56,429 nucleotides of DNA from a virus (taxonomy: Duplodnaviria > Caudoviricetes), in IMG/VR virus record IMGVR_UViG_3300032288_000938, positions 1 to 56,429 of that record. One strand, 5' to 3'. The notes beneath the pieces were generated by a model. That model saw only the letters and a program-made list of their open reading frames with translations. It was not told the origin of the DNA and searched no databases. Position numbers and translations under genes: made by a program. Positions 17,148 to 44,683 of this stretch are shown here, piece after piece (position 1 is the stretch's first letter; every line of letters starts with the position of its first letter).

Positions 17148-17211
17148 TCCCCTGCGGGGGCTGTCGGGGTTCTAAAAAAACCTTGACGGCCCCGCAAATC
17201 TTCGCTAATAA
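17146..17211 (+). promoter_or_regulatory. Repeat-plus-promoter module, copy 1
   Basis: 26-bp AATCCCCTGCGGGGGCTGTCGGGGTT then TTGACG-17-TAATAA. Confidence 0.75.
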
Positions 17212-17241
17212 ACAATCACCGAACAACAGGAGAGCAGGATC

Positions 17242-17955
17242 ATGACCGCATTTATCTTCACTAGAATTTCCCGCAATGCAAAGACCGGCCCTATCCCGGT
17301 CACAACTACCAGCAAAGATAGCTGCCCGAACGATTGCCCATTTCAAGGCTCGGGATGCTATGCAGAAGCAGGCCCGCTTGGGGCTATCTGGCGGGGCCTC
17401 ACTAAAGCCGGGCCGGATGCAGAATTTCCCAACGGGCGCAACAAAATGGCAAGCCTTGGGTTGGATGCTCTTTTGAAGCACATCCGCAAGCTCCCTGCCG
17501 GGCAATTGTGGAGACACAACCAAGCCGGGGATCTCGTACCCATGCCCGGCACTGGAACAATCGACCGCGACATTTTGAGCAAGCTTGTAGCCTCAAACAA
17601 AGGCAAGCGAGGTTTCACCTACACCCACCACAATGTGCTTCAAAACGAGCAGAACAGGCAGGCCGTGGCGGACGCTGTCAAGGAAGGTTTCGTTATAAAC
17701 CTTTCCGCCAATAACTTGCGCCATGCGGATGCTTTGGCCGATTTAGGAATTGCGCCGGTTTGCACGGTCCTACCCGCCAACGTGATGCAAAACACGACAA
17801 CACCCGCCGGGCGCAAGGTTGTAATCTGCCCGGCTGTTACACGTGATGATGTTTCATGTGAAACATGCGGGCTTTGCGCTAGGTTGCGGGAGGCCATTAT
17901 TGGTTTCCCGGCTCATGGTCCTTCTAAGGCTAGGGCTGGGGCTATTGCGGCATAA
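17242..17955 (+). CDS. Cys-rich putative metal/Fe-S phage protein
   Basis: NAKTG...SCP..CP...GCYA, WRHNQAGD, FTYTH, CPA...C..C.LC. Confidence 0.75.
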   Translation: MTAFIFTRISRNAKTGPIPVTTTSKDSCPNDCPFQGSGCYAEAGPLGAIWRGLTKAGPDAEFPNGRNKMASLGLDALLKHIRKLPAGQLWRHNQAGDLVPMPGTGTIDRDILSKLVASNKGKRGFTYTHHNVLQNEQNRQAVADAVKEGFVINLSANNLRHADALADLGIAPVCTVLPANVMQNTTTPAGRKVVICPAVTRDDVSCETCGLCARLREAIIGFPAHGPSKARAGAIAA

Positions 17956-18009
17956 ATCCCCTGCGGGGGCTGTCGGGGTTTTGACTTTGTCTTGCGTGTT
18001 CGCTAATAA
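17955..18009 (+). promoter_or_regulatory. Repeat-plus-promoter module, copy 2
   Basis: Identical 26-bp repeat then TTGACT-17-TAATAA; shares TTCGCTAATAA with copy 1. Confidence 0.75.
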
Positions 18010-18037
18010 TTCAACACCGATCAAATGGAGGTTTGAA

Positions 18038-18214
18038 ATGGACGTTGTTTCACAAATCATGGCTTACGAAGATGGCTCGCTCGATGAAGCTGGCTCGTTG
18101 GAGCTTTTCCAGCACCTAGTGGATACCGGGCTGGCTTGGCAACTACAAGGACACTATGGACGCACGGCACAACATCTAATTGATGCCGGTATCATCAACG
18201 CGAAGGAGGACTAA
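18038..18214 (+). CDS. Conserved small phage protein
   Basis: FQHLVDTGLAWQLQG.YGRTA; GGAGG RBS. Confidence 0.75.
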   Translation: MDVVSQIMAYEDGSLDEAGSLELFQHLVDTGLAWQLQGHYGRTAQHLIDAGIINAKED

Positions 18215-18217
18215 ACC

Positions 18218-18622
18218 ATGGGACTTGATATGTATCTGTCGGGCCGGAAGGTTCCGCGCTTTGACTTCGAGAACAATGTGGCCACCCGCACCGAGGATGG
18301 CTTCGATCTGGGCCATGTGGAGCTGAAGCTGGCCTACTGGCGCAAGCACGCCGACCTTCACGGCTACATTGTGGAGACGTTCGCGGACGGGGTGGACGAG
18401 TGCCAAGAAATCAATCTTTCCGCCGCAGACTTGCGCCAGATGATTGAGGCTATCAAGGCCGGTAAGCTGCCCGAGACTGAGGGTTTCTTCTTCCGGTATG
18501 ATGGTTATTCCCCTGCTGAGTTTGCTGCCGAGGATGTTCAGAAGCTGGAGAAGGCCCTTGAATGGCTCAACACCAAGCTCGATAATGAGTGGCGGTGTCT
18601 GGTGTATCAGGCAAGCTGGTAA
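18218..18622 (+). CDS. Conserved phage protein (MGLDMY...YWRK...YQASW type)
   Basis: Family motifs, GFFF; AGGAGG RBS. Confidence 0.8.
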   Translation: MGLDMYLSGRKVPRFDFENNVATRTEDGFDLGHVELKLAYWRKHADLHGYIVETFADGVDECQEINLSAADLRQMIEAIKAGKLPETEGFFFRYDGYSPAEFAAEDVQKLEKALEWLNTKLDNEWRCLVYQASW

Positions 18623-18673
18623 CACGCTGCGCTGGCGTCGGGGTTTCAAAATCAATCAACAATGGAGGGTTGA

Positions 18674-18880
18674 ATGTTCTATGTTTACAACTGCACGGAC
18701 GGCAAGCTAGAAGCCGCATGGCGCACAGTCAACGAGGCCGTGGATAGCTGCCAATATCTGACAAAGACACACGCAAAGCAATATTGGGTTCTGGCACGTG
18801 TCTATGACAGCGAGACATACCACAATCAACGGCACGAGGCTCGGATGCAGGCCGAGTTTGACAAATACGGGACCGATTAA
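18674..18880 (+). CDS. Early hypothetical protein
   Basis: GGAGG RBS. Confidence 0.65.
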   Translation: MFYVYNCTDGKLEAAWRTVNEAVDSCQYLTKTHAKQYWVLARVYDSETYHNQRHEARMQAEFDKYGTD

Positions 18881-18890
18881 GGAGAGATCA

Positions 18891-19076
18891 ATGGCTTACC
18901 ATGTAGCAAGAACGAAAGCTAAACCCGGCGAGATCTGGGGCCACCGTTTCACCAATCTGCGCGATGCAATGGTGGCAGCGGAGGAACTCACCCACGACAG
19001 GGGAGAGGCTCACACCGTGTGGGAATTAAAGCAACTCTGGACAGCGGAGGCGGATCATGGAGAGGCGTTGGCTTAA
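18891..19076 (+). CDS. Early hypothetical protein
   Basis: AAGGAG RBS at MAYHV. Confidence 0.65.
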   Translation: MAYHVARTKAKPGEIWGHRFTNLRDAMVAAEELTHDRGEAHTVWELKQLWTAEADHGEALA

Positions 19077-19275
19077 TGAGATCGAGCGCGCCCTGAACCC
19101 TCACGGGATCAGGATTGTTAGTCACAAGGATGGCAAGAAACACGCAAAGATCATGGTGACGGATGGCAAATCAACTCGGTTTATTGTCGTTTCTGTATCA
19201 CCAAGCGACCACCGGGCGACCATGAACATTGTCCAGAACGCGAAAAGGATGCTAAACGCGAGCATCGCAAGATGA
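19057..19275 (+). CDS. Small HicA-like (dsRBD-type) protein
   Basis: GKKHAKI...SVSPSD.R...N pattern; GGAGG RBS. Confidence 0.5.
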   Translation: MERRWLNEIERALNPHGIRIVSHKDGKKHAKIMVTDGKSTRFIVVSVSPSDHRATMNIVQNAKRMLNASIAR

Positions 19276-19472
19276 CGACCTACACCAACAGCATCGCTGG
19301 GTACATCATGCAGGCGTATGATGAACTACCTCAAAGGCTGCGAGAACTGGTGCGGGAAAATGTGGAATTAAAACTGGACCCCGCCCTCTTTATTATTGCT
19401 TTAGAGGACGGGATGAGCGAAGATGAGATCATTAATCTGACAAAAAATGGGAGGGGATGGTGGATGACATGA
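19272..19472 (+). CDS. Hypothetical protein
   Basis: M.AYD.LP..LR motif; ATGA overlap. Confidence 0.6.
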   Translation: MTTYTNSIAGYIMQAYDELPQRLRELVRENVELKLDPALFIIALEDGMSEDEIINLTKNGRGWWMT

Positions 19473-19675
19473 TAGGTTTTGGCAGGCCCGTTCTTGTGCG
19501 GACAAGGCATGAGCTTTTCGGGGGCGTGATCGCCGGGGGTTGGCATGACAAGCACAGCGGTTTGGCTGGGCCGGTTGTGAGAACGCCAGACGGTGCTTTT
19601 GTAAACACCGACTGGAAGCGCATTGTGCGCTACACGGACACGGACGAAATCCCGTGGCAGATTTGGAGGAAATGA
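19469..19675 (+). CDS. Hypothetical protein
   Basis: ATGA overlaps at both ends. Confidence 0.55.
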   Translation: MIGFGRPVLVRTRHELFGGVIAGGWHDKHSGLAGPVVRTPDGAFVNTDWKRIVRYTDTDEIPWQIWRK

Positions 19676-19746
19676 TGCTTGGAATTGTCTTGGTAATGCT
19701 GTTTGGATTTCTTGCCTTCATCAACTACATCTTCGAGGAGGAATAA
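19672..19746 (+). CDS. 24-aa transmembrane micropeptide
   Basis: MMLGIVLVMLFGFLAFINYIFEEE; GGAGG RBS; fills gap exactly. Confidence 0.6.
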   Translation: MMLGIVLVMLFGFLAFINYIFEEE

Positions 19747-19983
19747 ATGGACGATGATGGCTTGTTGGAACGTATCTATATTCTTGGCGAACAACTCACC
19801 GCCGAGATAATCGACCGCACGAACGGCAAAGGTCATTTGATTCTCGGAAGTCTTGCGGTGATCCTTGCCAACCTCGAGGCTCAGCATGAGGGGACAATCA
19901 AAGATGTCCTTGAAGGAACAAAGCTCATTCTGGCTATAAGTAGGGCAGAGGGCGCGGTTCCGGGTAATGATACCATGAACTAA
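19747..19983 (+). CDS. Hypothetical protein
   Basis: GAGGAGG RBS. Confidence 0.6.
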   Translation: MDDDGLLERIYILGEQLTAEIIDRTNGKGHLILGSLAVILANLEAQHEGTIKDVLEGTKLILAISRAEGAVPGNDTMN

Positions 19984-19985
19984 AG

Positions 19986-20015
19986 AAAAAGGGCGGGGAA
20001 ATCCCCGCCCTTTTT
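19986..20015. terminator. Bidirectional intrinsic terminator
   Basis: AAAAAGGGCGGGG-AAAT-CCCCGCCCTTTTT between convergent operons. Confidence 0.9.
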
Positions 20016-20310
20016 ACGCCTTGAGCCTTGTTACGTTGTCCTGCTCTGGTTCCGTGGCAATCTCTCCAGCCAGAGCTATATAAGCTGCCGCATCCACATA
20101 ACTATCAATATGCGTATCTGTCTTTGACAGGCGGCTAATCTTGAGCCACGCCATTGCGCGGGCAACCTGATGGGCGTTGACCGGAACCCCAAAAATCACA
20201 GACCACCCAACGGCAATGTCCTCATGGTTTTTCTTCGCTGGGCCGTAGTCCTTCGCCCGGTCCCCGTTTATCAATTCGCTTGCCGTCTTTAAGATTTCGT
20301 CCCGCGTCAT
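20014..20310 (-). CDS. DUF6378-like phage protein
   Basis: IL..A..LI.GDR..DYG, W, LKISR, DSYVD...Y.AL. Confidence 0.8.
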   Translation of the reverse strand: MTRDEILKTASELINGDRAKDYGPAKKNHEDIAVGWSVIFGVPVNAHQVARAMAWLKISRLSKTDTHIDSYVDAAAYIALAGEIATEPEQDNVTRLKA

Positions 20311-20623
20311 TCTTTTTCTCCAACTCTGTCATTTCAACAATCATCCCCTTCGGGATTGCGATTCTGCCACCAGTAACGGAATCGCCTTCATCTTGGTAAA
20401 GATCCCGGATCACTAAGATGTGATCCTTTTTCTTCGCATACAAGATTCCAACGGTCATAACCTGAACGGGTTCAATTGTGGGATCCCCATGCTTCCATTC
20501 ATTAGTATCCTCAAGAACATCCTTCCAGATGACGAGAACCCAAGGCTTAGAAACCGAAGTCTTTGCTTTCTTTTTGCGGGGCTTGGTCCCCGAAGTCGTT
20601 GTATCGCGTTGTTCCGACATCAT
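20222..20623 (-). CDS. Conserved phage protein
   Basis: VIWKD...W...TVG...IPKGMI. Confidence 0.6.
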   Translation of the reverse strand: MMSEQRDTTTSGTKPRKKKAKTSVSKPWVLVIWKDVLEDTNEWKHGDPTIEPVQVMTVGILYAKKKDHILVIRDLYQDEGDSVTGGRIAIPKGMIVEMTELEKKNDAGRNLKDGKRIDKRGPGEGLRPSEEKP

Positions 20624-22319
20624 AGTAAAGCCTCGTTTCGCCTTGCTTCCCAACCCATGAGAACCTCACCTTCCAAATGTGGATTTGGGCTTCCAGAGGG
20701 TTTTCGTCTGGGATGCGGTGGACAGTCATGCCGCAGTCAGCCTTGGCAAACCAAGCAGCAGAACCACTAATATCATAACCCTTTGGCACAGGCAACTTGC
20801 CATCTGCCCCGCGCTGGAGCTTGGTGGGATGCGCCACAAACCAGATATGGATGCCGTGAGCCATGCAGAATGACTTGATCCGGGTGAGCATCGTGCTGAT
20901 CCACTCGGTCTCAGACACATCACGGGGCCGTTCAATGAAATTGTAGGGGTCAATAACTGCCCCGCGAATACCCATCCGCAGCACTGCCGCCCGGAGCCGT
21001 TCGAGGATGCTGTCCAGATCAGACAATCCACCATCTTCTTGATGAAGAAAAACAAAACGGTCATTCACCCAATCAAACGCTGCTTGGAGTTCATGATCTG
21101 CCATGCGCTTCGTTGGGCCATCAAAGAATGGCTTGCGGACCCTCTTTGAGAGGAGCTTGGCAATATGCAGGCGGGGTTCATTCTCAAATGAGCAGATCGC
21201 AAAGGACCACTTCTCGCTCTCAGCGAGATTAACCATGATCTGATCTACAAACTCAGATTTGCCGGAAGATGGGATGCCGGTCACAACGGTCATCTGCCCC
21301 GGTACAATCGTGTAGAGTTCATCTACGTTATCATATCCGGTTGATGAACCCCGACCGATACCCTTCTCATAAAGTTCACGGATTTGGGCTTCAAACTTGC
21401 CAGCCTCATACAGACCATTGATCGGCCACGGGCTTGGCTTGCTTACAAAGTCTGCAAGGGCTTCCTTGCCATGCGACCTGAGATAATCATTCGCATCCTT
21501 GATGCCTTCCGGCCATTCAATACGCCAACAGCGGTCACGACCAACACGGCGCGCAATCTCTTCGGCAAGGGCCTCACCCTGACTGTCCTTATCAACGGCA
21601 ATCACAATGCGCTTGGCCTTGTCAATAAATGACTTTGCTGCCCACAAGAACCGGAACTTGCTGTCCTCTTCCGGGGTGATCTTGCCATCCACGACCTTCA
21701 TGGGCGCACCATTCGGGACGCTAACGGCAGTAACCCCGGCCTCCATCATGGCTGCCGCGTCAAGCTCGCCTTCAACAATGAAAAAATCCTCACCTTCCAC
21801 GGCATTGCCGATGTTGAAGAATGAGGGAGGCGATTGCCAGCATGTGAACGCCTTGCTTTCAATTGAACGGATTTTTGCACTAACAACCATGCCGTCCTTG
21901 TCAAAGTACGGGAACCCGATGGCGTCTTGCTCTTGACCTACTGCCGGGAAGAACTTGCGGGATTTGAATAAACGAAGCTTATCAGCCGTTTCTTTGGAGA
22001 TGCCCCGCTCTTTGAGCAACCAATCATAATGCTTCTGTTCAAGGGCAGGACATTCTGCGGGGTCCGTCTTTGCGACTGGTTTCTTTTCCATAGGCACGAC
22101 GTTATTCACCCAGCGATCCTCCTTGATTGATCCAGAAACTCCGCAGTGCTTGCAGTCGTAAACAATTCCCATCTCATCTCTCTTTACAGAGAGGCAACGA
22201 TCCTTGCGATTGTACTTGCGTTGATGAGAACAAAATGGACAAGTGGTTCTGGTCTGTCCATAGTTAAGAGCCATCATCTTGATGGCTTGTTCTTCATGCG
22301 AGATGTGCTTTGCGTACAT
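20547..22319 (-). CDS. Twinkle-like primase-helicase (Zn finger, TOPRIM, SF4 helicase)
   Basis: CPFC...CKHC; VEGELD, SVPNGA, D.D..G, KDAND; TGIPSSGKS, IDPYN, VAHP, YDISGSA. Confidence 0.95.
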   Translation of the reverse strand: MYAKHISHEEQAIKMMALNYGQTRTTCPFCSHQRKYNRKDRCLSVKRDEMGIVYDCKHCGVSGSIKEDRWVNNVVPMEKKPVAKTDPAECPALEQKHYDWLLKERGISKETADKLRLFKSRKFFPAVGQEQDAIGFPYFDKDGMVVSAKIRSIESKAFTCWQSPPSFFNIGNAVEGEDFFIVEGELDAAAMMEAGVTAVSVPNGAPMKVVDGKITPEEDSKFRFLWAAKSFIDKAKRIVIAVDKDSQGEALAEEIARRVGRDRCWRIEWPEGIKDANDYLRSHGKEALADFVSKPSPWPINGLYEAGKFEAQIRELYEKGIGRGSSTGYDNVDELYTIVPGQMTVVTGIPSSGKSEFVDQIMVNLAESEKWSFAICSFENEPRLHIAKLLSKRVRKPFFDGPTKRMADHELQAAFDWVNDRFVFLHQEDGGLSDLDSILERLRAAVLRMGIRGAVIDPYNFIERPRDVSETEWISTMLTRIKSFCMAHGIHIWFVAHPTKLQRGADGKLPVPKGYDISGSAAWFAKADCGMTVHRIPDENPLEAQIHIWKVRFSWVGKQGETRLYYDVGTTRYNDFGDQAPQKESKDFGF

Positions 22320-22338
22320 AACCCCCCCAGAGCCAAGC

Positions 22339-22367
22339 ACAATACACGACCAACATTCCCCAGTCAA
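22339..22367 (-). promoter_or_regulatory. Sigma70-type promoter of primase-helicase
   Basis: TTGACT-17-TATTGT. Confidence 0.55.
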
Positions 22368-22419
22368 TAAATATTTAGGTATTGCTCATGAGTTCAGACC
22401 GTTGAATGACAAGCTGATG

Positions 22420-22700
22420 ACGACATAGGAGAACAACCCCCTTGCATTTAAGCAAGAGGGTTGGTCCGCCATGTGCTTGGTCTTGCTCATCGAGACGAGC
22501 CGCCGAACGACAAGGGCGATCTGCTAAACACCGCGATCACCGCCGCATCATCTTATCGGGAGATGGTGTTCTCCCGCTGGCCCCCACAATGCGATTGCAG
22601 ACTCGGGTTGTCGCTTTGGCCAGTACCCACGGTAACGACATATCCCACCGACCCCGCCGTTTGTCCGACAGCCAGTGGGCAACATTCTTAAGGTAACACG
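22420..22700 (-). other. Structured non-coding region (ncRNA or origin-associated)
   Basis: Six or more hairpins and CTGGCC/GGCCAG pseudoknot; no credible ORF. Confidence 0.5.
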
Positions 22701-22707
22701 GCAGATG

Positions 22708-23073
22708 TCATTCCATCAAGATGTCAGAATCCGTGTTCTTTTCCTTATCTACATCTCCAAGGTTGTCATCTATATAAGAACGAATCAAGAACCTGAATGC
22801 CATCGCGCGCTTAAACGCAATTGCTTGTGTTTCTGCCGAGAGGATTGCATTCACGGTATGCCTGACCCGCGTCTGGGACATACCGGCCATGTCGCAAACG
22901 ATCCCAAAATCGTCGCTTCTCATCCATTCAATGACTTCTTTTTTGACTTTGGGGTTGGTTGACGCAGCGTCAATCGCACATTGCATGACTACCGAAATCC
23001 ACAACCTTTGCTCTGGGGTGAATACAGTGTCATCGCCCTTGGCAAGCGGCTCATAGATGCTGCCTTCCATCAC
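22708..23073 (-). CDS. Conserved phage protein
   Basis: PEQRLW..V...A..DA, W..S.DF..VC..AG. Confidence 0.7.
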   Translation of the reverse strand: MMEGSIYEPLAKGDDTVFTPEQRLWISVVMQCAIDAASTNPKVKKEVIEWMRSDDFGIVCDMAGMSQTRVRHTVNAILSAETQAIAFKRAMAFRFLIRSYIDDNLGDVDKEKNTDSDILME

Positions 23074-23423
23074 AGCACCTCTACCAGAATATCAGAGCGG
23101 GGGTTTTCTTTGTCCAAGTGCCAGTAAACGTGGCGTTCTTTGATTTGCCTGTCGTTTTTATAAATGCAATCCTGCATCAAATCCAAGATCAGTGACTCGT
23201 CCAGATCGGGGCGACGCGAGGCATACCAGATGTGGATGGTGACGCGCAAATCTCCCTCAAGGAGGGGGTCCAAGACAGGACATTGCGCCTTGAACATCTT
23301 CCCGTAGTTCAGGGCTTTTTCCGATTTTATGAAAAATTTACCAGTCCATCGCCGGGAATTTGCCTTTGAGGCCGGTTCACCTAAGATTGTGAACTGGATA
23401 ATGCTTGACTCATGGTTTTTCAT
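23070..23423 (-). CDS. rusA: RusA-like Holliday junction resolvase
   Basis: GEPASKAN, RRPDLD, LD.MQ..IY.NDRQI, D..NPR. Confidence 0.8.
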   Translation of the reverse strand: MKNHESSIIQFTILGEPASKANSRRWTGKFFIKSEKALNYGKMFKAQCPVLDPLLEGDLRVTIHIWYASRRPDLDESLILDLMQDCIYKNDRQIKERHVYWHLDKENPRSDILVEVL

Positions 23424-23441
23424 AGGGTATTTCAATGTTCC

Positions 23442-24374
23442 ATGCAAATCACCAATCGCTACAATCTTCCCGCTGCAATCGTTAACAACGTATTGAATGA
23501 CGAGTATTCTCGCGGCGATGCCGTGATTTCCGTCACTCAGTTGTTGAACTCGCCACGCATAGTATTACTACAGCGTGTAAACGAAAGCAAGATGGTGGTT
23601 GACGTTGTGGATCGGCTGCCGTCCATGATTGGCACCGCCATGCACAAGGTCTTGGAAAAAGGAGCAAATCCAGAGGACATTGTTGAGGAGCGGTTCTTTC
23701 TGGACATCCTTGGGTGGCGCGTTAGCGGGGCTGTGGATCTTCAAACCCCGAAACCAGACGGCACTTGGGAAATCAATGACTACAAGATGACCTCCGTCTA
23801 TTCGGTGATGGCCGAGAAGTGGGAATGGGAGGCACAACTTAACATGTATGCCTACCTTATGCGACAATCTAAGGGTAGGCGGGTGTCTTCCATGAAGATC
23901 GTGGCCATCCTTAAGGACTGGAACCGCAAGCAGGGGGCGTTTAAGACCGATTACCCAGAAGCCCCGATTGTTGTGGTGGACATCCCGGTTTGGGATGACG
24001 CCCGGCAGGAAGCCTATATTGAGAGCCGTGTTTTTGAACATCAGAAGAATGCGAACGCGCTTGACAGTGGCGAGCCAATAGACTACTGTACAGACCAAGA
24101 ACGATGGCTCAGGGGCGAGAAGTGGGCTGTCATGAAAAAGGGCCGCAAGTCTGCGGTAAAGCTTTTTGATTCGGAGGAAGAAGCGAATGGATGGATTGGC
24201 AGCCAAGAGGACAGCAACATCCTCTCCGCAGAACACCGCCCCGGAGAACCCATCCGTTGCTCTGGCAACTATTGCGGGGTCGCACAATGGTGCAAACAGT
24301 GGCTTGAGCAATCTGGTCAAGGCGCTGGTGAAGGCTCAGTCGGAATTGAAGAACGCGAGCCTGAACAAGACTAA
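23442..24374 (+). CDS. PD-(D/E)XK exonuclease with C-terminal Cys cluster
   Basis: IGTA.H, E.R, SG.VD, DYK, QLN.Y, RC..YC.V..WC. Confidence 0.85.
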   Translation: MQITNRYNLPAAIVNNVLNDEYSRGDAVISVTQLLNSPRIVLLQRVNESKMVVDVVDRLPSMIGTAMHKVLEKGANPEDIVEERFFLDILGWRVSGAVDLQTPKPDGTWEINDYKMTSVYSVMAEKWEWEAQLNMYAYLMRQSKGRRVSSMKIVAILKDWNRKQGAFKTDYPEAPIVVVDIPVWDDARQEAYIESRVFEHQKNANALDSGEPIDYCTDQERWLRGEKWAVMKKGRKSAVKLFDSEEEANGWIGSQEDSNILSAEHRPGEPIRCSGNYCGVAQWCKQWLEQSGQGAGEGSVGIEEREPEQD

Positions 24375-24756
24375 CCCGCATTTCAAATCCCGTTATGCGG
24401 ACCTTGCGGAAATCCGCGATACGGTTATGCCCGTGCTGTGTAAGCATGGGATTGCGCTTGTGCAGTACACACAGATCGGGGCTGGGGGGTTCTATCTGGT
24501 GACGCGCTTGCTACATGAGAGCGGCGAAATGATCGAGAGCCGTTTCCCTCTTCCTGAGAACACAGACAAGCCGCAGCAGATGGGTAGCGCGATTACCTAC
24601 GCCCGTCGCTATATGATGGCTTCGATTTGCGGGATCACTGCGGAGGAGGATGACGATGGCAATGCGGCGCAGGCTACCAATGAAAGGGGATCGTCCAAGT
24701 CAGGAGGATCCAAAGCCAAACCCGCCACCGCCGCAGCGGACGGAGTCGTATTCTGA
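24304..24756 (+). CDS. erf: ERF-family ssDNA annealing protein (start uncertain; frame open from 24166)
   Basis: AL.KAQ, NPHFKS.YADL, LHESGE, Q..GSAITYARRY, DDDGN. Confidence 0.9.
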   Translation: MSNLVKALVKAQSELKNASLNKTNPHFKSRYADLAEIRDTVMPVLCKHGIALVQYTQIGAGGFYLVTRLLHESGEMIESRFPLPENTDKPQQMGSAITYARRYMMASICGITAEEDDDGNAAQATNERGSSKSGGSKAKPATAAADGVVF

Positions 24757-24961
24757 GGAACCGGGGCAAGACTTCAACTGGGACCTTTACGAGAAAATGA
24801 TGGTAGCCTGTCTCGTAGTTCATAAAACAGTTGATGGCCTAGTCAATATGTGGAAGTCAAACGCCAACATGCTTGACTGGGCAAAGAAGAAGGCACCAAA
24901 CCACTGGCAGCGCATGAGGGATGCGTTCGCCGCCCGTAAATCGGCAATCTTAGGAGAATAA
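24650..24961 (+). CDS. Hypothetical protein (start probably later)
   Basis: L..MWK.N...F..RK pattern; fills operon gap. Confidence 0.45.
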   Translation: MTMAMRRRLPMKGDRPSQEDPKPNPPPPQRTESYSEEPGQDFNWDLYEKMMVACLVVHKTVDGLVNMWKSNANMLDWAKKKAPNHWQRMRDAFAARKSAILGE

Positions 24962-24962
24962 A

Positions 24963-25217
24963 ATGGCCGAGTATGACAACACTAATCGCGGCGTTCTTTT
25001 TAAGAATGATCGCAAAGAGAAGGATACCCACCCCGACTTCACCGGCAGCGGTAATGTTGAGGGCGTAGAGGTTTACATTAACGGGTGGAAGAAAGAGAAG
25101 AACGGCAAGAGCTTTATCTCTTTTAGCTTTAAGCCCAAGGAAGGTGCTGCCCGCCCTGTGGCGAAGCCTGCTCCGCGTCGCGTTGAGCCATCTTTGGATG
25201 ACGAAATCCCGTTCTAA
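24963..25217 (+). CDS. Putative small ssDNA-binding protein
   Basis: YDNTNRG.LFKN..K...HPD.TG; acidic DDEIPF tail. Confidence 0.75.
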   Translation: MAEYDNTNRGVLFKNDRKEKDTHPDFTGSGNVEGVEVYINGWKKEKNGKSFISFSFKPKEGAARPVAKPAPRRVEPSLDDEIPF

Positions 25218-25263
25218 TCGGGAAAGGTTAGGCTGTCGCCCGAATGTACTGATGGCGATAGAG

Positions 25264-25302
25264 CCAGTGGGGTTTTCCTCCTCCCGCGACTGGCACTTTT
25301 TT
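25264..25302 (+). terminator. Terminator-like hairpin after SSB gene
   Basis: GCCAGT...ACTGGC then T-run; preceded by CTGTCGCC/GGCGATAG hairpin. Confidence 0.45.
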
Positions 25303-35132: not shown

Positions 35133-35150
35133 ATTCAGAGCCTGTCTTTA

Positions 35151-37526: not shown

Positions 37527-37528
37527 CT

Positions 37529-38554
37529 TCAGTCGCGCTCCCTCATGATGCGGTCAAGATCCATGACCCCGCCATCCTTGAACCCAAGCATACTGCCAAA
37601 CCAAGGAGACCCAAGGGCATACATACCAAGGCCAGCAATCGTGGAGCCGAAACTGGATGGCTGCTTTTGCGTTGTTTGAGACCCCGCAGGCGCGCCATAA
37701 GCAATGGCTGCATAGTCTGCAAGTTCTTTCTTTGCGATGTCTCTTTGCTCAATAAACTTGCGCAACTCTTCGTCAAGGAGAGCCTGCTGATAAGCCTGTT
37801 GCTGAGATCCGATACCACGGAGTCCCTCAAGTCGCTGAAGCTCCATGGCGCGTTCTTTTTCGCCAAGCTGGCCAAGCTGCTCTGCCGCAGTAAGGCCAAA
37901 CTGGCCACGCTCAAGCGCGGCTTGTTCAGCAAACTGCCGTGATTGCTCTGTGTCAAGCGCCGCTTTACGGGCTGCTTCCTGCTGGCCAATTGCAAGCGCA
38001 CTAGCGCGGTCAAATCCTTCGGCCAGCATCTTGGCCTCAGTGTCTGCGGCAAGCTGGCGATATTCGCGGTTCTGAAGCTCGGACTCAATTGCGCCACGGC
38101 TGCCACCCAAGGCACCGGCTGCGGCCTGACGGGTGCGCAGAGCGGCGGCTTCTTCGCCTTGGCGACGCTGTATACCACCGAGCGCGGCGTCAATAGCCTG
38201 TTGCTGATATGGGTTCAGATATTCGCGGATCTGTTCGCCGGTCAAGCGGTTGGGGTCAAACTGTTGACCTTCAAACCCCGGACGGCCAGATACGGAACCG
38301 GCAGCAGCCCCGGCCATTTCGCCAGCCTCTCCAAGCCTGCCAACACCGGCAGTCAGGTCGCGAATGCCACCAAAGTAACGCTGTGTGTCTGGCGTGAAGC
38401 CAGCAACAGTTTCGCCCTCGTACTGTGGGACCCCTTCCTTGCGCTGCAAATATTGCTGCTTGCCTTGCTGAAGCGCAAACTGAACGTAAGGCTTGAGCAT
38501 TGGATCAAGCTGCTGCGTCGTTGTGGAAGACCCACCGCCCTTGCCGCCACCCAT
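37529..38554 (-). CDS. Putative DNA ejection/pilot protein
   Basis: GGGKGG start, YLNPY, AGALGGSR, Q/A-rich helices. Confidence 0.7.
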   Translation of the reverse strand: MGGGKGGGSSTTTQQLDPMLKPYVQFALQQGKQQYLQRKEGVPQYEGETVAGFTPDTQRYFGGIRDLTAGVGRLGEAGEMAGAAAGSVSGRPGFEGQQFDPNRLTGEQIREYLNPYQQQAIDAALGGIQRRQGEEAAALRTRQAAAGALGGSRGAIESELQNREYRQLAADTEAKMLAEGFDRASALAIGQQEAARKAALDTEQSRQFAEQAALERGQFGLTAAEQLGQLGEKERAMELQRLEGLRGIGSQQQAYQQALLDEELRKFIEQRDIAKKELADYAAIAYGAPAGSQTTQKQPSSFGSTIAGLGMYALGSPWFGSMLGFKDGGVMDLDRIMRERD

Positions 38555-38555
38555 A

Positions 38556-38975
38556 TTATATTTCCTTCTCGAAGATCACGAGGTTTGATTTCCAGCCCCT
38601 TGACTTTAGGATCTTTTCCCAACCCCGCCTGCCAATAAGCTCTAAATTGTTAATTTTGAGATCGCGAGCATAGCTCTCCATAATCTCAAATAGTTCATCC
38701 GCCCATTCATCTAGACGTTCACCGCCAAGATGCTCTCCAGTCAGAGCTGCCCCGGCAGGATATAGCTTTATGCGGATCGTAAAGGCACCAACCAGATTGA
38801 TGGCGGAGCCTTCGTAGGCAACCCAGAGACTCTGGTTCCCTCTCATAAGGTCTTCGTAAACATCTTCCGGTTCAATCTTGTGACTGGAATACTCGAAGGC
38901 TTTAGAGAGGAGGGGAAGTGCCAAGCCCCAATAGTCATCCACCATATCTGGTGGAACGGCGCTAATCTTAATCAA
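38556..38975 (-). CDS. Conserved protein, possible GNAT-like fold
   Basis: LWV, GG.....W, GR.GW motif before ejection genes. Confidence 0.55.
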   Translation of the reverse strand: MIKISAVPPDMVDDYWGLALPLLSKAFEYSSHKIEPEDVYEDLMRGNQSLWVAYEGSAINLVGAFTIRIKLYPAGAALTGEHLGGERLDEWADELFEIMESYARDLKINNLELIGRRGWEKILKSRGWKSNLVIFEKEI

Positions 38976-39481
38976 GCAGGCATAACCTTGTCGTGGTTTA
39001 TTTCGCCATTATCGCGAATGCGCTTTGTGGCTTCACCTTTGACGCGAGAAACCATACCATCAAGGACCTTCGCGCCTGCTTCGCTAGATCCATCGCCCAG
39101 CGCAGATACCACACGCGCAGGGACAACATACTCGCCGTCGGATAGCAAAACCTTGCCTCGGTTGTCAATTGTGCCTGCGATCAGGTCATCAACACCGCCA
39201 CCGGGGCCACGAATCATTCCGCCCTTATCCATTGCATACGCCATCTGCGGGGTTTCGCCCGGAGGGATTGGGGGTAAGTTCATAATGCCTCCCCCATCTG
39301 CAAAATTATATGTCGGATAATTTGCCAAGCCCGGCAGGACTGGCGCGCGTCCAATGGGCATACCCGTAACAGATGTTGGCATAGCCATTCCGCCGCCACC
39401 GGACTGCTGTCCGCCGCCCAAAAGGCTACGGATCCCGCCCATGACGAGAGATGAAAGCATACCTGTGACAAGTGGGATCAT
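38972..39481 (-). CDS. Conserved virion-module protein with GPG..D.I.A...LSDGEYV domain
   Basis: GGMIRGPGGGVDDLIAG...LSDGEYVVPA.VVS.LGDGSSEAGA. Confidence 0.7.
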   Translation of the reverse strand: MIPLVTGMLSSLVMGGIRSLLGGGQQSGGGGMAMPTSVTGMPIGRAPVLPGLANYPTYNFADGGGIMNLPPIPPGETPQMAYAMDKGGMIRGPGGGVDDLIAGTIDNRGKVLLSDGEYVVPARVVSALGDGSSEAGAKVLDGMVSRVKGEATKRIRDNGEINHDKVMPA

Positions 39482-39744
39482 GTTACAATCTTAAGTGTAC
39501 CGCCGTCAGACCACACATCTCCTGATTTCAGGCCGGTGGCGGACGTTGGGATGTTGACGATATTTAGGCCAGATTTGGCTTTGCTGTTTACACCGGCTAC
39601 GGGACCGCATGTAATTGGTCCGACGCTCTGGAACTGATTAAAGATCGTTTCAAGCTGCCGGATAAGCAGATTCATATGCTGCTGAGAATACTCTGGGGGC
39701 GGAAGCGGTAATGCGCCTCTCGCAACGCCGGGTGTAGTTGTCAT
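39478..39744 (-). CDS. Small virion protein
   Basis: LP.PP.EY, PTSA.GL..GDVW. Confidence 0.6.
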   Translation of the reverse strand: MTTTPGVARGALPLPPPEYSQQHMNLLIRQLETIFNQFQSVGPITCGPVAGVNSKAKSGLNIVNIPTSATGLKSGDVWSDGGTLKIVT

Positions 39745-41906
39745 CTGCGGCCATCCAATCTGATGTCAAAACGGGGTGTTCCGAGACGCCAAGCCACACC
39801 CACTTCGTCGCTAGACACCCTTAGTATAACAGATCTACCCCTGATTCTGGTAAACAACTGTTCGGTAAAGCTATTTACCGAATAGTTGTAGCTGACCGGG
39901 TTGCTGTCTGCCGCACCCTTTACGGACCCCGGATACATCTGCGGTTTAATAGCAAAGTCCACAGACCTATTCGGGCTGTAGTCGCCAGTATTACGGAAAG
40001 AAATATCCGGGATAATACGGGATACGAACGCGATCTTGTCGCCATCTTCTATCTCAACGGGGCTGGATTCAATGTAGGCCACAATTGGACTGGGCGGGTT
40101 TGTAGAGCCGTCGTCTGTCCCGACCTCATGATAATAAGTGTAGTTATCAGAGCTTGTCGCGAGAGGGTTCGCACCAAATCCGCGATCTGCCCAAGTCGTT
40201 CGTGACATAGTCCCATAATACCACGCCTTCTCTGCGTAGTTATAGGTGACGTAGCTATCGTTCTCGTCCGAGTTGGCTGATGGGTAGAACCATGTCACCT
40301 CATTGTTTGAACTATTTATGCCAGCGTAAATCTTGTACCGCTGTTCAAAGTTCAAATTCAAAAACACCTTTTCGCGGACCGTGCATGGCATTCGGTTCAC
40401 GGAGCCGTCGTAATAATAAAAGTTGTCGCTGCCCATCCAAAAGGATGTGTTTACGGCAGTCGCTACCGTATTGGGGCCAATAATATCAATGCCACTGGAA
40501 ACCAGTGTTGCAGTGAATACATATGTCCCACCTTGATACTGAAGCGAATACAAAGCAGAATCCGTCCACACGAGAACTTCCTGACGGGTCTGCTCAGCGG
40601 TCATGATGAATGAGCCATTAGACAAGCGCAAGGACCCCGCGTTCTCTGCGGTATCTGCCTCGTCCCAATTAAGATAACTTCGATCCGTTGACCAGCGAAT
40701 GAGCATTTTGTCTTGTGCGCCGCCGCCAAATGGGTCTGCCCCAAAAGCAATCGTATGCTCGCCAATGTCAGACACAAGAACCTTAGAGGCTATGGTTGGG
40801 CAGTCGGTAGCGCCAACTATGTCCACAATATTCTTTGCACGCTGAGTCGGGGTATTCTCCACCCATACATAAATACCGCCATCGCGCGGGTTCATAATCA
40901 GGTCTTCGCCAAAATTGTCAAGTGACCAAAGACGAAGCTGAAGCTGTAAGCTTGATTCGGTCGCGGCTTGTCCCCAGCCGGTAGCAGTGCCGCCATTTGC
41001 AGTGGAAATGTAAGTCAGCATCGTTGCAGCTTCGCTGCTTGTGCCGTTTCCGCTTGCAGTCTTTTGGGTGGTAACGGTTATGGTATTCGTACCAACGGAC
41101 ACAATTGTAAATGCGCGGTTAATGAATTTCACATCAATACCGCCAATGGCCGTTGTCAGGCCCGAAATTACAACAGAATCACCGGCAAGAAGCCCATGAG
41201 AATTGTATGTTATGACAATATCGGCGCTGCCGCTGGTGGCGGCGATGTCGCCTGATGTAACGGTCAAAGAAGAGGTAGGTGCGTTTGCGCCGCCAAATGG
41301 GCCTGCGCCCCAGCCTGTGCCGACAACCAGAGAGTCAAGACCAATGTTAATTTGGTACGCAGCGACTACACTGGCACCGCCACCAGATGCAGAAGAGGTC
41401 GCCGTTGTCGCGACAATGATTTCGTAATTATTGGCATCAATAACATGAGTGACCTCATGCTCCTTATTAAGGTCTGCCGCTGGGACCCCGCCTACAGTTG
41501 TAGCCCCAGAAAAGGTTACATAATCGCCCTCAATACATCCATGTGCGGTGTCCGTGACCTTTACAGTCTTGGATCCGTTTGTTGTCGTAAATGGATTGTT
41601 GTTGATTGTAGAGGATGCTCGGAGTGGAGTAACATCTTGATACTCAGAAAGTGAACCACCATTGATGTACACCTTCTTGCTGGTCGCAACAGATGTATAA
41701 ATTGTCCCGTTCAACGACGCCCAGCGCAAAATATCGCGAGCTGTTCCAAGGAACGGGGTGTTCAAAAACCTTTGCCATCCGCCAATCTTTTCCGGCAGAC
41801 CGTTACGGAAACGCACCTTGTCAGAGTCATACCAACCTCCAGTGTTGGTGTACTCTGTCAAGTCACGGTTGATGCCGGGATTGAACTTTAGCTTGGATAG
41901 AGGCAT
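39741..41906 (-). CDS. Tail/head-closure protein (P22 gp10 / nozzle-like)
   Basis: PGINR, RFR.G.PEKIGGW, WSLDNFGEDL, IRWS, WRLG..R.D...DGRR. Confidence 0.75.
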   Translation of the reverse strand: MPLSKLKFNPGINRDLTEYTNTGGWYDSDKVRFRNGLPEKIGGWQRFLNTPFLGTARDILRWASLNGTIYTSVATSKKVYINGGSLSEYQDVTPLRASSTINNNPFTTTNGSKTVKVTDTAHGCIEGDYVTFSGATTVGGVPAADLNKEHEVTHVIDANNYEIIVATTATSSASGGGASVVAAYQINIGLDSLVVGTGWGAGPFGGANAPTSSLTVTSGDIAATSGSADIVITYNSHGLLAGDSVVISGLTTAIGGIDVKFINRAFTIVSVGTNTITVTTQKTASGNGTSSEAATMLTYISTANGGTATGWGQAATESSLQLQLRLWSLDNFGEDLIMNPRDGGIYVWVENTPTQRAKNIVDIVGATDCPTIASKVLVSDIGEHTIAFGADPFGGGAQDKMLIRWSTDRSYLNWDEADTAENAGSLRLSNGSFIMTAEQTRQEVLVWTDSALYSLQYQGGTYVFTATLVSSGIDIIGPNTVATAVNTSFWMGSDNFYYYDGSVNRMPCTVREKVFLNLNFEQRYKIYAGINSSNNEVTWFYPSANSDENDSYVTYNYAEKAWYYGTMSRTTWADRGFGANPLATSSDNYTYYHEVGTDDGSTNPPSPIVAYIESSPVEIEDGDKIAFVSRIIPDISFRNTGDYSPNRSVDFAIKPQMYPGSVKGAADSNPVSYNYSVNSFTEQLFTRIRGRSVILRVSSDEVGVAWRLGTPRFDIRLDGRR

Positions 41907-41915
41907 TGCATAGCC

Positions 41916-42275
41916 TTACGAAAGCTGCTTGAGCTTGTAGATGGTCTTTAGGTAAATTGCCGTAATTTCGTCAACGATATTTTCCAAAGCCGGTATTTCG
42001 CTTGCAATATGCTCGCGATGTTCATTAATCCAGTTTGCTTCGTCAGACAGGTGAGAGAGAATATCCTTCACTGGTTTGACTGCCGGAATCTCAAGTGGAT
42101 CAACTACTTTACCAGCGGCACCCATATACGCTTCAACAAGCTTGTCAATGCCGTCGATGATGTCATCATAAAATGCACCAAGGGCTTCATGCTCCGCGAA
42201 ACTTTTTGTACGCCAATGGGCAAGATGAGCGCAGTTGCGGGTGCAGAAAACCTTCTGGATAAGCTCGTTCAGCAT
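41916..42275 (-). CDS. Ferritin/Dps-like protein
   Basis: H..HW.T.SFA.H.AL..FY, D..VE.Y.G, YKL..L. Confidence 0.8.
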   Translation of the reverse strand: MLNELIQKVFCTRNCAHLAHWRTKSFAEHEALGAFYDDIIDGIDKLVEAYMGAAGKVVDPLEIPAVKPVKDILSHLSDEANWINEHREHIASEIPALENIVDEITAIYLKTIYKLKQLS

Positions 42276-42284
42276 TTTTCCAAC

Positions 42285-43712
42285 TTATGTCTTGATGATG
42301 TAGTTAAGGATAATTGTTGGCTGCACGTTGTTGTGTGCGCCACCGCCGCCAACTGTCTGCGTAAAAGGTTGCGAAGAGGCTGAGCTAGTCCCAAACCCGG
42401 CATCTGCGGCTTGGGAAGCCAAGCCCGGCACATCTGTTGTTGTTATGCCATACACACCGAGATCAATGTTGCTTTTCGTAAGACCGCCAGACCCGTGTTT
42501 GTGGGCTGGCATTTGTGCTTCTGTAAGGGTATGTGTCTCAAGACCGCCGGTCCCACCAAGGATGTCGCCATCTACGCCGCCAGAGGTGCCAGTAAGACGA
42601 TTTGCGGAAGATCCGCCCATGTCATCTTTACCAGCGGCAGTGCGACCGCGAAGGTCAGGAAGATTGAATGTAGTTGAATTATCGCCGACGCCGTATGTTG
42701 TGCCAATGATAGCAAACAGGTCTGCGTATGTTGAGCGCGATACGGCCTGACCAAAGCTGAGAAGCCAGCCAGATGGCGCGGTCGTTCCCGCAAACGGCAT
42801 CACGGAACCTGTCGGGATCAGAAACCCTCCGGCACCGTTAATAAGAACGGAACCTGTACCTTTTGGGGTCAGGTTAATATCAATGTTTGTGTCTGGGCCG
42901 GTGGCTGCGATAATCGCCGCATTGCCGGTTGTTGCCGATACGTTGGCAGGAGAGGCAATAGTTTTATTTGAGAGCGATTGAGTTCCTGTGAGGGTTGCGA
43001 CCTCAACCCCGCCAGCCTTAACAACGCCAGTCCCCTTGGGTGCAAGCAGAATGTCAATGTTGGTGTCCGACCCACTGCTGGAGATGGAGGGTCCTGACCC
43101 TGTCGCGGCATTTGCCACGGTAATTTCGTTTACGGCTGAAGCAACCGTGTCCATGACAATAAGCTCATTGCCATTTGCATCGGCAACAAACCCACCGTCT
43201 GCAAACTTAGGGGCCGTGAGCGTCTTATTGGTGAGAGTCTGTGTCCCCGTGTTTGTAGTTATTTCGGAACCGCCCACGGTCGCACCGGCGGCGAGATCTT
43301 CAACTGCGTTGTAGAATGTACCGTTGCCACCGCCAGCATCCTTGTCACAAAACACGATGGCGGAAGAGTTTGCCGGTACTGAAACCCCGCTGCCGGAGGT
43401 CGTCTTGATTGTGTGCGAGTCAGCGGTTTCGTTGCGGACGATATAAACCTTATCCACATCGGGAGCAATAATATTGCGGGATGCCCCCGGCGTCCCCTTG
43501 AGGATCAGCGTCATATTGCGAGATTCGTCGGAAGCGCCGTTGGCAAACTCAAGCGTGTAATCGCTGCCAGCCAGCGTGATTTCCTGAACCCCGCAGATTG
43601 CCTGTTCAATCAAGGTCCCAAGGTTTGTGTTGGTCGTGTTGTTCCACGCGCCGGACTGTTCACCGGCACCGATAAGTTCAATACGAAGATTTGGGGAAAA
43701 TGTAGAAGCCAT
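42285..43712 (-). CDS. Tail fibre with tail-collar domain
   Basis: PTG..MPFAG..APSGWL...GQAVSR.TYA.LF..IGTTYG, FNLPDLRGR, HNN.QP...NYIIK. Confidence 0.85.
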   Translation of the reverse strand: MASTFSPNLRIELIGAGEQSGAWNNTTNTNLGTLIEQAICGVQEITLAGSDYTLEFANGASDESRNMTLILKGTPGASRNIIAPDVDKVYIVRNETADSHTIKTTSGSGVSVPANSSAIVFCDKDAGGGNGTFYNAVEDLAAGATVGGSEITTNTGTQTLTNKTLTAPKFADGGFVADANGNELIVMDTVASAVNEITVANAATGSGPSISSSGSDTNIDILLAPKGTGVVKAGGVEVATLTGTQSLSNKTIASPANVSATTGNAAIIAATGPDTNIDINLTPKGTGSVLINGAGGFLIPTGSVMPFAGTTAPSGWLLSFGQAVSRSTYADLFAIIGTTYGVGDNSTTFNLPDLRGRTAAGKDDMGGSSANRLTGTSGGVDGDILGGTGGLETHTLTEAQMPAHKHGSGGLTKSNIDLGVYGITTTDVPGLASQAADAGFGTSSASSQPFTQTVGGGGAHNNVQPTIILNYIIKT

Positions 43713-43720
43713 TTGCGTTC

Positions 43721-44683
43721 CTACGCTGCTATTTCAGTCCAGTTGGGGGACTGTGTGTCTGATACTGGTGTCCAGCCCGGAGACTGGGTGTCTACCACGG
43801 GCGTCCAATTCGGGTTCTGGGAGTCGTTAACTGCCGTCCAATTCGGGGTTTGAGCGTCTGAAACATTTACCCAATTGGCGTTCTGATCTGTGTTAATTAT
43901 ACTCCAGACCAGTACATTTCCGATAAACCCAGTGGCAGAAAGCCCTATTACATAAACAGTTGCCGTATTAACGACCACCGCATTGCCGACATCGCCGGTA
44001 GCGGAAACGCCGGTAACAAAGACCGTTCTTGGCAGTCTGACGGTTACATCGCCAACTGCGCCCGTGCCTTCTACCCCAGTGGGGTAGACATTGGCATCCC
44101 CGGTCGCAACTACGGTCCCGAGCGACGCCGTGAGCGGGGTTCCTACAGGATAGACATTACCCTTGGCAGTGACCGTTACATCGCCAACAGCGCCAGTTGC
44201 GGACACACCTGTAGGCTGTACTGTTGACTTTGCCACAACCGTAACAGACCCCGCCACGCCGGAGGCGGATACCCCAGTCGGATACACATTGGCAGCAGCC
44301 GATACGGCTAAATCGCCGACTTCGCCTGTGGCAAACACCCCGGTTGGGAATATTGTGGCAGACTGCTCGACGGTGACATCGCCAATCTGGCCGGTCGCCT
44401 CTAGACCGAGAACGGCAATATTACCGTCTGTGGATACGGCAACAACGCCAGTCTCGCCAGTTGCCTCTACCCCAGTTACAGGGGCGTTGGCCGCTGCGCT
44501 GGCTGTCGGGGTTCCAAGCTGGCCTGTGGCAAAGACGCCAACGGCGTAGACAAGGGCGTCGGCCTCAACAGCAAGCGTGCCTACGGCCCCGGTGGCCGAC
44601 ACCCCGGTTACATTGACAGACACATTCGCAGAGGACTGGAATGCGGTTGTCTGAAATGCACTAGATTGAAAGGCTGCGGCCAT
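43721..44683 (-). CDS. Repetitive beta-rich virion protein
   Basis: About ten TGV.ATG.VG.V.V repeats; C-terminal 11-aa Q.PNWT.V.D repeats. Confidence 0.7.
   Translation of the reverse strand: MAAAFQSSAFQTTAFQSSANVSVNVTGVSATGAVGTLAVEADALVYAVGVFATGQLGTPTASAAANAPVTGVEATGETGVVAVSTDGNIAVLGLEATGQIGDVTVEQSATIFPTGVFATGEVGDLAVSAAANVYPTGVSASGVAGSVTVVAKSTVQPTGVSATGAVGDVTVTAKGNVYPVGTPLTASLGTVVATGDANVYPTGVEGTGAVGDVTVRLPRTVFVTGVSATGDVGNAVVVNTATVYVIGLSATGFIGNVLVWSIINTDQNANWVNVSDAQTPNWTAVNDSQNPNWTPVVDTQSPGWTPVSDTQSPNWTEIAA

Follow-up and report, generated by a model that had tools for sequence, protein, structure and literature searches.

The 56,429-bp virus record IMGVR_UViG_3300032288_000938 of IMG/VR, which was analysed over its whole length and is called the window here, carries a real, lineage-specific signal at the DNA level that consists of two tiers. 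The first is the heptamer CGGGGTT, found about once per 0.9 kb over both strands. The second is the 12-mer GCTGTCGGGGTT, which follows a CTGCG box and is the most extended, single-strand-only subclass of the lineage-specific word CGGGGTY (weak extended form CGGGGTT-YYAA). The original prediction had noticed the most conspicuous of these tiers, describing the 12-mer as a strand-polarised element that probably acts as DNA. The heptamer most likely serves for recognition by some enzyme that handles DNA, the primase encoded by the phage itself being one candidate.

Over-representation of the heptamer CGGGGTT

Over positions 1..56429, CGGGGTT was found 30 times on the plus strand and 32 times on the minus strand (as AACCCCG), and the degenerate form CGGGGTY 46 and 51 times, respectively. 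This corresponds to approximately 1100 heptamers per Mb and to an approximately eight-fold excess; base composition predicts about 8 copies in all, and 62 were found. Shuffling synonymous codons within genes (300 shuffles) yielded means of 8.6 and 6.7 copies and maxima of 14 and 13, so that the excess remained unexplained by this null; against it, CGGGGTT ranked first among all 7-mers (z = 12.7). Permutations of the heptamer with the same composition reached only 1–11 copies per strand. The excess was 4–8 fold in every one of the six orientation-by-frame classes. The hexamer CGGGGT occurred 114 times against 43 expected from the codon shuffle, and the base following it was enriched when it was T (62 vs. 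15.9) or C (35 vs. 13.4), whereas A or G (17 of 114 vs. about 14) showed no enrichment. A weak extended consensus, K-K-CGGGGTT-Y-Y-A-A, was shared by both strands, its flanks adding a little information. Dinucleotide and codon shuffles together ruled out chance or codon usage as the cause. These results demonstrate that the phage lineage maintains CGGGGTY by synonymous codon choice.

The copies of CGGGGTY lay on average 1227 nt apart on the plus strand and 1106 nt apart on the minus strand. No even spacing of the heptamers was seen when it was looked for; the coefficients of variation were 1.04 and 1.03, and the largest gaps 8.8 and 7.7 kb. The head module (~55.4 kb through 7.7 kb) and the gene of a 721-aa virion protein were nearly free of the heptamer. 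A literature search for CGGGGTT as a word returned only unrelated papers, and one for over-represented primase sites returned nothing useful.

Other words of this genome also depart from expectation. CCWGG is almost absent, with one site per strand against approximately 114 expected from the codon shuffle, and CAGCTG occurs once against 23 expected; words containing TCGA or ACGT are partly depleted. CCWGG and CAGCTG are likewise absent from the two close relatives described below (G1 and G2), and this common pattern suggests that a shared host imposes strong avoidance of restriction sites. The heptamer excess is not a by-product of CCWGG avoidance, as CCGGGGTT covers only six of the 62 heptamers. 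A second enriched word, TGCCGGG/CTGCCGGG, was found 42 times against 13 and 21 times against 4.8 expected (e.g., at 2881, at 33525, and at 13840 on the minus strand) and showed no extended consensus; its excess may in part arise secondarily where CCWGG is avoided at Pro-Gly and comparable codon pairs.

The 12-mer and its composite copies

Five exact copies of GCTGTCGGGGTT were located, at 17160, 17969, 33502, 37330, and 44502; all lie on the plus strand, none on the minus strand, and each has CTGCG ahead of it at a distance of two or three nucleotides, which bears out the positions and the box of the original prediction. The resulting composites span 17152–17171, 17961–17980, 33495–33513, 37323–37341, and 44494–44513. 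With up to one mismatch allowed, 11 matches were obtained, 10 of them on the plus strand, compared to a chance level of 0.37 on average and 2 at most in 100 dinucleotide shuffles. The sole minus-strand match was GCTGGCGGGGTT at 43005–43016. CTGCG stands 2–3 nt upstream of six copies on the plus strand and of none on the minus strand. In the synonymous-codon shuffles, the 12-mer occurred 2.02 times on average on the plus strand, a value that the two fixed intergenic copies account for almost entirely; therefore, the three copies within coding sequence are not expected.

The three early composites are intergenic (Table 1). The copy at 17152 begins 5 nt past the stop codon of the ArdC-like gene and has a sigma70-like −35 box 11 nt downstream, and the copy at 17961 follows the stop codon of the DUF7227 gene and abuts a −35 box (TTGACT). 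The sixth composite, CTGCGCTGGCGTCGGGGTT at 18627–18645, comes after the stop codon of the gene at 18218–18622, and its position is kept in G2. It is the variant that had been reported at 18628, with its box present; the other reported variant, placed at about 28372, proved to be the box-free copy at 28376–28387, which has a hairpin, CGCG-TCA-CGCG, directly ahead.

The three late composites are all antisense in structural genes, and all encode TPTA in linkers rich in Pro, Thr, and Ala; the copy at 33502 lies within a Pro/Ala-rich linker. As had been claimed, 33492–33513 and 37320–37341 are identical over 22 nt and encode TPTAPQA in both minus-strand genes. TPTASAA at 44502 is read in the same frame as TPTAPQA, whereas its CTGCG box lies in another reading frame than the boxes at 33502 and 37330; therefore, the box is kept as DNA and not as peptide. 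The proposal that the element is sense in the early and antisense in the late region stood for the late copies only, the early ones being intergenic and merely co-oriented with the early genes. Overall, the composites form three near-identical pairs, 17160/17969, 33502/37330, and 18634/44502, the last sharing CGCTGCGCTGGC and the core with a 1-nt indel. The Thr-Pro codons of the motif are ACC CCG, and the two phage tRNAs, tRNA-Thr(TGT) and tRNA-Pro(TGG), do not decode them directly.

Further single-mismatch copies on the plus strand include one at 1065 and those at 32943 and 48033, the latter two of which probably belong to the plain heptamer class. The weak variant at 15381 is the same as that of the G2 copy after the DUF7227 gene. 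Besides the promoter-like match listed in Table 1, sigma70-like matches in the early region were found at 17183 and 17981.

Strand polarity was confined to the extended form. The core was unpolarised at 30:32, and G[GT]CGGGGTT was found 13:13, although GTCGGGGTT (12:1, plus to minus) and GGCGGGGTT (1:12) appeared polar. The codon-shuffle null gave the same direction, GTC on plus and GGC on minus, through gene orientation; the 9-mer polarity is therefore a coding constraint and was rejected as a signal. A GCTGT prefix with at least four of five matches was found ahead of nine of the 30 plus-strand heptamers and one of the 32 on the minus strand (Fisher p = 0.005). These counts lend moderate support to the view that only the extended form, with its CTGCG-N2/3-GCTGT prefix, is truly one-stranded, and so retain the originally proposed polarity for the composite (6:0) and the 12-mer (5:0) and not for the core. 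A generic hairpin upstream was discarded as a polar feature, with five on the plus strand and six on the minus strand of the window.

Conservation and turnover in relatives

Public collections yielded only two close relatives, G1 (18.2 kb, 79% nucleotide identity, extended by a metagenome contig) and G2 (31 kb, 73%), in which the heptamer excess was 9.4 fold and 11.2 fold, respectively, within an overall range of 9.4–11.5 fold for the two. It was at most 3 fold at the more distant DUF7227-phage loci that were scored. No heptamer enrichment was seen in approximately 70 more distant relatives from public collections or in 14 contigs of metagenome-assembled genomes (MAGs) with a related TerL, found by a TerL scan of genome contigs. 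Among 156 loci from structural-protein scans, a multi-copy excess was present in two loci only, both derived from G1. A first metagenome scan found no relative, and a second turned up nothing beyond G1-like contigs and one 64% fragment. Scanning IMG/VR with the composite pattern gave 19 single matches, with L006 as the only relative, and scanning it with TCCCCTGCGGGGGC gave 119 loci, with the heptamer behind it in G2 only. Contigs from several freshwater metagenome runs hold near-identical DNA, and cultured phages gave no DNA match to the motif region and none to the motif element. The nearest named phages by TerL are relatives of the HTVC023P/027P-type pelagiphages, at 55–61% identity.

Within the aligned regions, 11 of 18 window heptamers were intact in G1 and seven of 14 in G2, whereas identity alone predicts fractions of about 0.19 and 0.11; conversely, eight of 19 aligned sites of G1 and 12 of 19 of G2 were absent from the window. 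Sites conserved above background and nevertheless turning over indicate purifying selection together with renewal. The composite at 44502 is exact in G1 amid a region of approximately 75% identity. The copies at 17969 and 18634 are kept in G2 with sequence changes: the one after DUF7227 reads CCCGC-TCGCC-GCGGG plus GCTTTCGGGGTTTCAA, and the one after the gene next to DUF7227 reads CCCC-TGC-GGGG plus GCGGCGGGGTT. G2 has four composite-like copies in total, all on one strand and two of them at new places, and lacks the copies at 37330 and 44502. In L205, a contig of the G1 lineage, the gene of the 791-aa protein lacks approximately 59 codons close to the N-terminal end relative to 37283–37480 of the window, the 37330 copy included; this is either a deletion or an assembly gap.

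Taken together, the enrichment in all six classes, the excess in close relatives only, and the site conservation indicate that the signal acts on DNA and is lineage-specific. The proposal that the element acts as DNA is well supported by these results, and by the occurrence of intergenic as well as coding copies and of the box in different frames.

Other lineages, related by their DUF7227 protein (L032/L031, L027/L028, L066, L030, and L042), have strongly enriched words of their own. These are the palindromes CAAGCTTG and TCGGCCGA, GGCGCTG, TTTTGTC (22 vs. 3.1 expected, L027), and TTGTGGT (31 vs. 2.6, L032).

The word as a possible primase template

Our favoured reading, to which we assign a probability of roughly 0.3, is that the T7-gp4-like primase-helicase encoded by the phage may prefer the word as its template site. 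The product of this gene matches T7 gp4 structures (E = 2e-12, residues 118–578) and contains a zinc ribbon of the CxxC...CxxC type (CPFC...CKHC, residues 43–75), a Toprim domain, and a DnaB-like domain (DnaB_C); it is the candidate reader of the motif. CGGGGTY includes the T7-type core GGGT(C/T), with only T or C enriched in the last place; CGGGGTC (35 copies) contains GGGTC, and the commoner CGGGGTT (62 copies) ends in T. The composite carries CTGTC rather than (G/T)2GTC. The word follows the phage lineage and no sampled host (five MAG and 401 alphaproteobacterial genomes). A further lead is given by the words of L027 and L032, which end in a T7-type core, TTGTGGT being followed by C in 11 of 31 copies.

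According to PMC12839067, T7 primase sites are 5′-(G/T)2GTC-3′ with an influential 10-nt 3′ flank, and 26 of the 177 pentanucleotide sites are strong; the strong sites lie at distances of 1–6 kb and track fork direction, 19 of them being on the positive chain and seven on the negative chain. Similar to T7, for which the same source places a few dozen strong sites on the lagging-strand template at kilobase distances, the phage has a gp4 homologue with a zinc ribbon, a word ending in GGGT plus pyrimidine as in T7 GGGTC, and information that reaches about 10 nt past a short core. It differs from T7 in that selection here is genome-wide, at synonymous sites and without bias on both strands, in that the last base is more often T than C, and in its flank preferences; the enzyme here is also known only as a predicted gene product.

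If the primase does read the word, CGGGGTY would template the primer pppACCCCG, with the final pyrimidine cryptic, and sites on both strands would be spaced roughly like Okazaki fragments. The plus-strand composites would offer, in addition, TGTC on the upstream side and another CG box at a distance of about one helical turn, and could be high-affinity priming or loading sites on the lagging-strand template, e.g., the displaced strand in rolling-circle replication. That the composite is an oriented binding or loading site, as first proposed, is plausible.

Several points weigh against this reading. Priming at the word is something that we infer. The random-like spacing of the heptamer is unfavourable because selection for coverage should give more even spacing, and its lack of strand bias is not accounted for by a single lagging-strand template. 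The composite polarity rests on approximately four to six independent sites, about six when pairs are counted once and the two new G2 sites are added. GTC is present in only one of the four G2 composites. To our knowledge, primases read trinucleotides, and a selected 7–11-mer would be unusual. The KKGT-ending words in other lineages were picked post hoc, other lineages have palindromes, and TTGTGGT of L032 is followed by any base. Additionally, with GTC as the catalytic centre, the 3′ flank would be G-rich, in contrast to the A/T-rich preference of T7 (PMC12839067).

Alternative explanations

The plus-strand composites could instead be recognition sites for site-specific single-strand interruptions (nicks) in virion DNA, as in the phages tf, phiKMV, and T5, with the plain heptamers a separate matter. 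We consider this rather unlikely, even though a long, bipartite, asymmetric motif with six composites on one strand (exact 12-mer 5:0), spanning two convergent gene sets, coding and non-coding DNA alike, in a podovirus-like genome, matches the signature very well, and the 44502 copy is exactly conserved in G1. PMC3517423 describes 14 TACTRTGMC sites in tf, on the top strand only and across convergent gene sets, as well as the bipartite CGACxxxxxCCTA/CTCCGG of phiKMV-like phages and R/GCGCRGG of T5. The nick consensus sequences of tf/LUZ24-like phages, phiKMV-like phages, and T5 resemble the composite in being asymmetric, 9–19 nt long, sometimes bipartite, and confined to one strand with between a handful and 14 copies, and in crossing the convergent transcription units of podoviruses; their function is given there as not known. 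Their sequences are unrelated to the present motif, and the enrichment of the core on the other strand has no parallel in the nick systems described there. No nickase candidate was identified in the phage, the late-gene copies are not conserved in G2, and nicking leaves unexplained why copies are placed right after early-operon stop codons (three of three in the window and three in G2). This placement is what an intercistronic element of the plus-strand early transcripts would account for, that is, a hairpin stabilising, processing, or attenuating RNA, with the late copies unrelated or secondary. The copies between a stop codon and the next gene recur in G2 at 2892, 3605, and 4008, a short G+C hairpin stands just upstream with stems that vary and remain complementary (CCCC/GGGG, CCCGC/GCGGG, CCCCC/GGGGG, CGCG/CGCG), distant relatives carry ordinary terminator-like hairpins at the same spot past the DUF7227 gene, and the three best sigma70-like promoters of the early region each have a copy ahead of them. 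We nevertheless regard an RNA element as very doubtful. The stems are 3–5 bp long and lack a T-run, and a terminator scan of 15000–20000 found no terminator-like site at any motif copy, by which an intrinsic terminator was rejected. Immediately after four of the six early copies come a ribosome-binding site and ATG, without a new promoter; these copies therefore cannot terminate efficiently. A search for known RNA families in Rfam returned the two tRNAs only and no family match for the element, and the late antisense copies, with the same CTGCG box in a different frame, would be unexplained. A hairpin promoter of the N4 type was also rejected, as no RNA polymerase family match was obtained and the 2194-aa virion protein, which matches LPD38, ART-PolyVal, and methyltransferase-like families, has no DxDGD motif.

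The heptamer could also be a word of the host, either an uptake-type sequence or a Chi-like signal for recombination or against degradation, accumulated by a temperate phage, with the 12-mer its strong or extended version; we judge this to be unlikely. Enrichment of a host word would look similar in density, in presence on both strands, and in lineage specificity, the phage has an integrase, the near-total avoidance of CCWGG and CAGCTG in the window, G1, and G2 suggests a shared host, and the word-poor head module looks like a recently imported one. Uptake signal sequences and DNA uptake sequences of Pasteurellaceae and Neisseriaceae characterise competent hosts; both strands contain them at about one per kb, they favour certain frames within genes, and their conservation exceeds background. 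The heptamer shares this pattern of about one copy per kb on both strands, in genes and conserved, but no genome with a comparable word density was present among the 406 sampled: the 401 alphaproteobacterial and five MAG genomes reach at most approximately 340 copies per Mb against approximately 1100 in the phage. This is a weak test, the sample being a small fraction of species, and its result holds without two unpublished genomes of the 401. The candidate that scored best against a reversed-pattern control (G109, 373 kb) was rejected as host, since its 83 heptamers compare with approximately 74 expected from composition and it is rich in CCWGG. As for Chi, phages rich in oriented copies are documented in PMC12315714, with 23 Chi sites in LLS, 20 of them in one orientation, and 32 and 0 of GCTGGCGC in MD8. 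Such temperate phages likewise over-represent a short G/T-rich word whose active form is biased in orientation, and the 12-mer starts with GCTG as do enteric and Pseudomonas Chi (same source). The Chi-rich phages described there, however, lack Rec modules and use the known Chi of their host, whereas this phage has its own module of ERF and a PD-(D/E)XK exonuclease. Chi is an oriented word of 5–8 nt; the heptamer here is unoriented at 30:32, and conservation of the oriented composite extends over at least 19 nt, which exceeds the length of Chi. The same ERF and exonuclease would be available for short-patch gene conversion, and a further possibility is that only the heptamer is selected, its flanks having been homogenised by conversion and the one-strand pattern being a chance effect of small numbers. 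The three near-identical pairs are in line with this, as are the position of all three coding copies on TPTA in low-complexity linkers (ACC CCG AC is used in seven of 10 TPT tripeptides) and the explanation of the 9-mer polarity by coding constraints. We find it improbable all the same, as every pair has CTGCG at N2–3 upstream despite a chance probability of about 0.004 per site, the prefix bias of 9/30 against 1/32 gives p = 0.005, the four composite-like copies of G2 share one strand with two at new places, and conversion alone should also have produced inverted copies.

Genome organisation

The record ends in a 123-nt terminal direct repeat, a mark of assembly overlap. Judged by its predicted gene content, the phage is of a podovirus-like, temperate type. 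A predicted GcrA-like regulator hints at an alphaproteobacterial host, and further minus-strand genes encode a Cpn10/GroES-like protein (3125–3580) and PhoH (9717–10403). The integrase is a tyrosine recombinase of only 270 aa, with central and catalytic domains and without the arm-binding N-terminal domain; no attP was identified. Its gene converges with that of the 2194-aa virion protein in a 23-nt overlap (28548–28570) with no terminator between them, so that early plus-strand transcription could continue antisense into the late genes.

A non-coding region of 724 nt (15263–15986), a candidate for an origin or a regulatory region, separates TerS from the divergent early genes; within it lie the weak motif copy, the first early promoter-like site, and an inverted repeat (TTGCGGGG...CCCCGCAA). 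No DNA polymerase family was matched among the open reading frame translations scanned (36 against PHROGs and 65 against Pfam, a non-exhaustive scan), and the phage may depend on the polymerase of its host, combined with the primase-helicase that it encodes.

Table 1. Motif copies and principal features of the window.
Feature	Position	Strand	Context
Analysed stretch	56,429 bp		Complete IMG/VR virus record
Weak variant GCTTTCGGGGTT	15381..15392	+	724-nt non-coding region, 60 nt upstream of first early promoter-like site
Sigma70-like promoter match TTGACC-N17-TATAAA	15453..15481	+	First of three in early region
Composite copy 1, CTGCG-GGG-GCTGTCGGGGTT-CTAA	17152..17175	+	Intergenic
Composite copy 2	17961..17984	+	Intergenic; 26-nt identity with copy 1
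Composite variant CTGCG-CT-GGCGTCGGGGTT-TCAA	18627..18649	+	Intergenic
Variant TCTGTCGGGGTT	28376..28387	+	Integrase gene, sense; no CTGCG box
One-mismatch copy GCCGTCGGGGTT	32943..32954	+	No upstream box
Composite copy 3	33495..33517	+	Antisense in 2194-aa polyvalent virion protein gene
Composite copy 4	37323..37345	+	Antisense in 791-aa SLT-domain ejection protein gene
Composite copy 5	44494..44517	+	Antisense in 320-aa gene, TPTASAA
One-mismatch copy GATGTCGGGGTT	48033..48044	+	No upstream box
Head and packaging gene set		-	
Major head protein	93-1007	-	
Portal	3772-6180	-	
TerL	6189-7688	-	
tRNA-Thr(TGT)	7878-7952	-	
tRNA-Pro(TGG)	8238-8314	-	
GcrA homologue	10609-11061	-	
TerS	14744-15262	-	
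Early to middle block	~15.4 to 28.6 kb	+	
ArdC-like protein	16269-17147	+	
DUF7227 protein	17242-17955	+	
Primase-helicase, T7-gp4-like	20547-22367	-	Within the plus-strand early to middle block
PD-(D/E)XK exonuclease	23412-24374	+	Early to middle block
ERF	24166-24756	+	Early to middle block
Integrase	27758-28570	+	
2194-aa polyvalent virion protein	28548-35132	-	Late block, convergent with early block
791-aa SLT-domain (ejection) protein	35151-37526	-	Late block, which also holds tail genes

Implications

It is possible, although we propose it only tentatively, that freshwater HTVC023P-like podoviruses carry lineage-specific "priming words", i.e., 7–11-mers in approximately ten-fold excess that are selected at synonymous sites and each end in a T7-type primase core (GGGTY here, TTGTC or TGGTC elsewhere). 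The extended specificity of the gp4-like primase would then co-evolve with the genome, and the one-stranded composites would mark the rolling-circle lagging-strand template.

If the primase reading is true, the genome of this phage would have been composed to suit the sequence that its own replication enzyme prefers, primase specificity would be readable from sequence alone, and a clue to replication direction in uncultured phages would be gained. Even without a mechanism, an eight-fold heptamer excess in all frames and on both strands is a strong DNA-level constraint on the protein-coding sequence of a phage, and related lineages have different words. This has consequences for the reading of codon usage, for host prediction, and for motif scans in such abundant freshwater phages.

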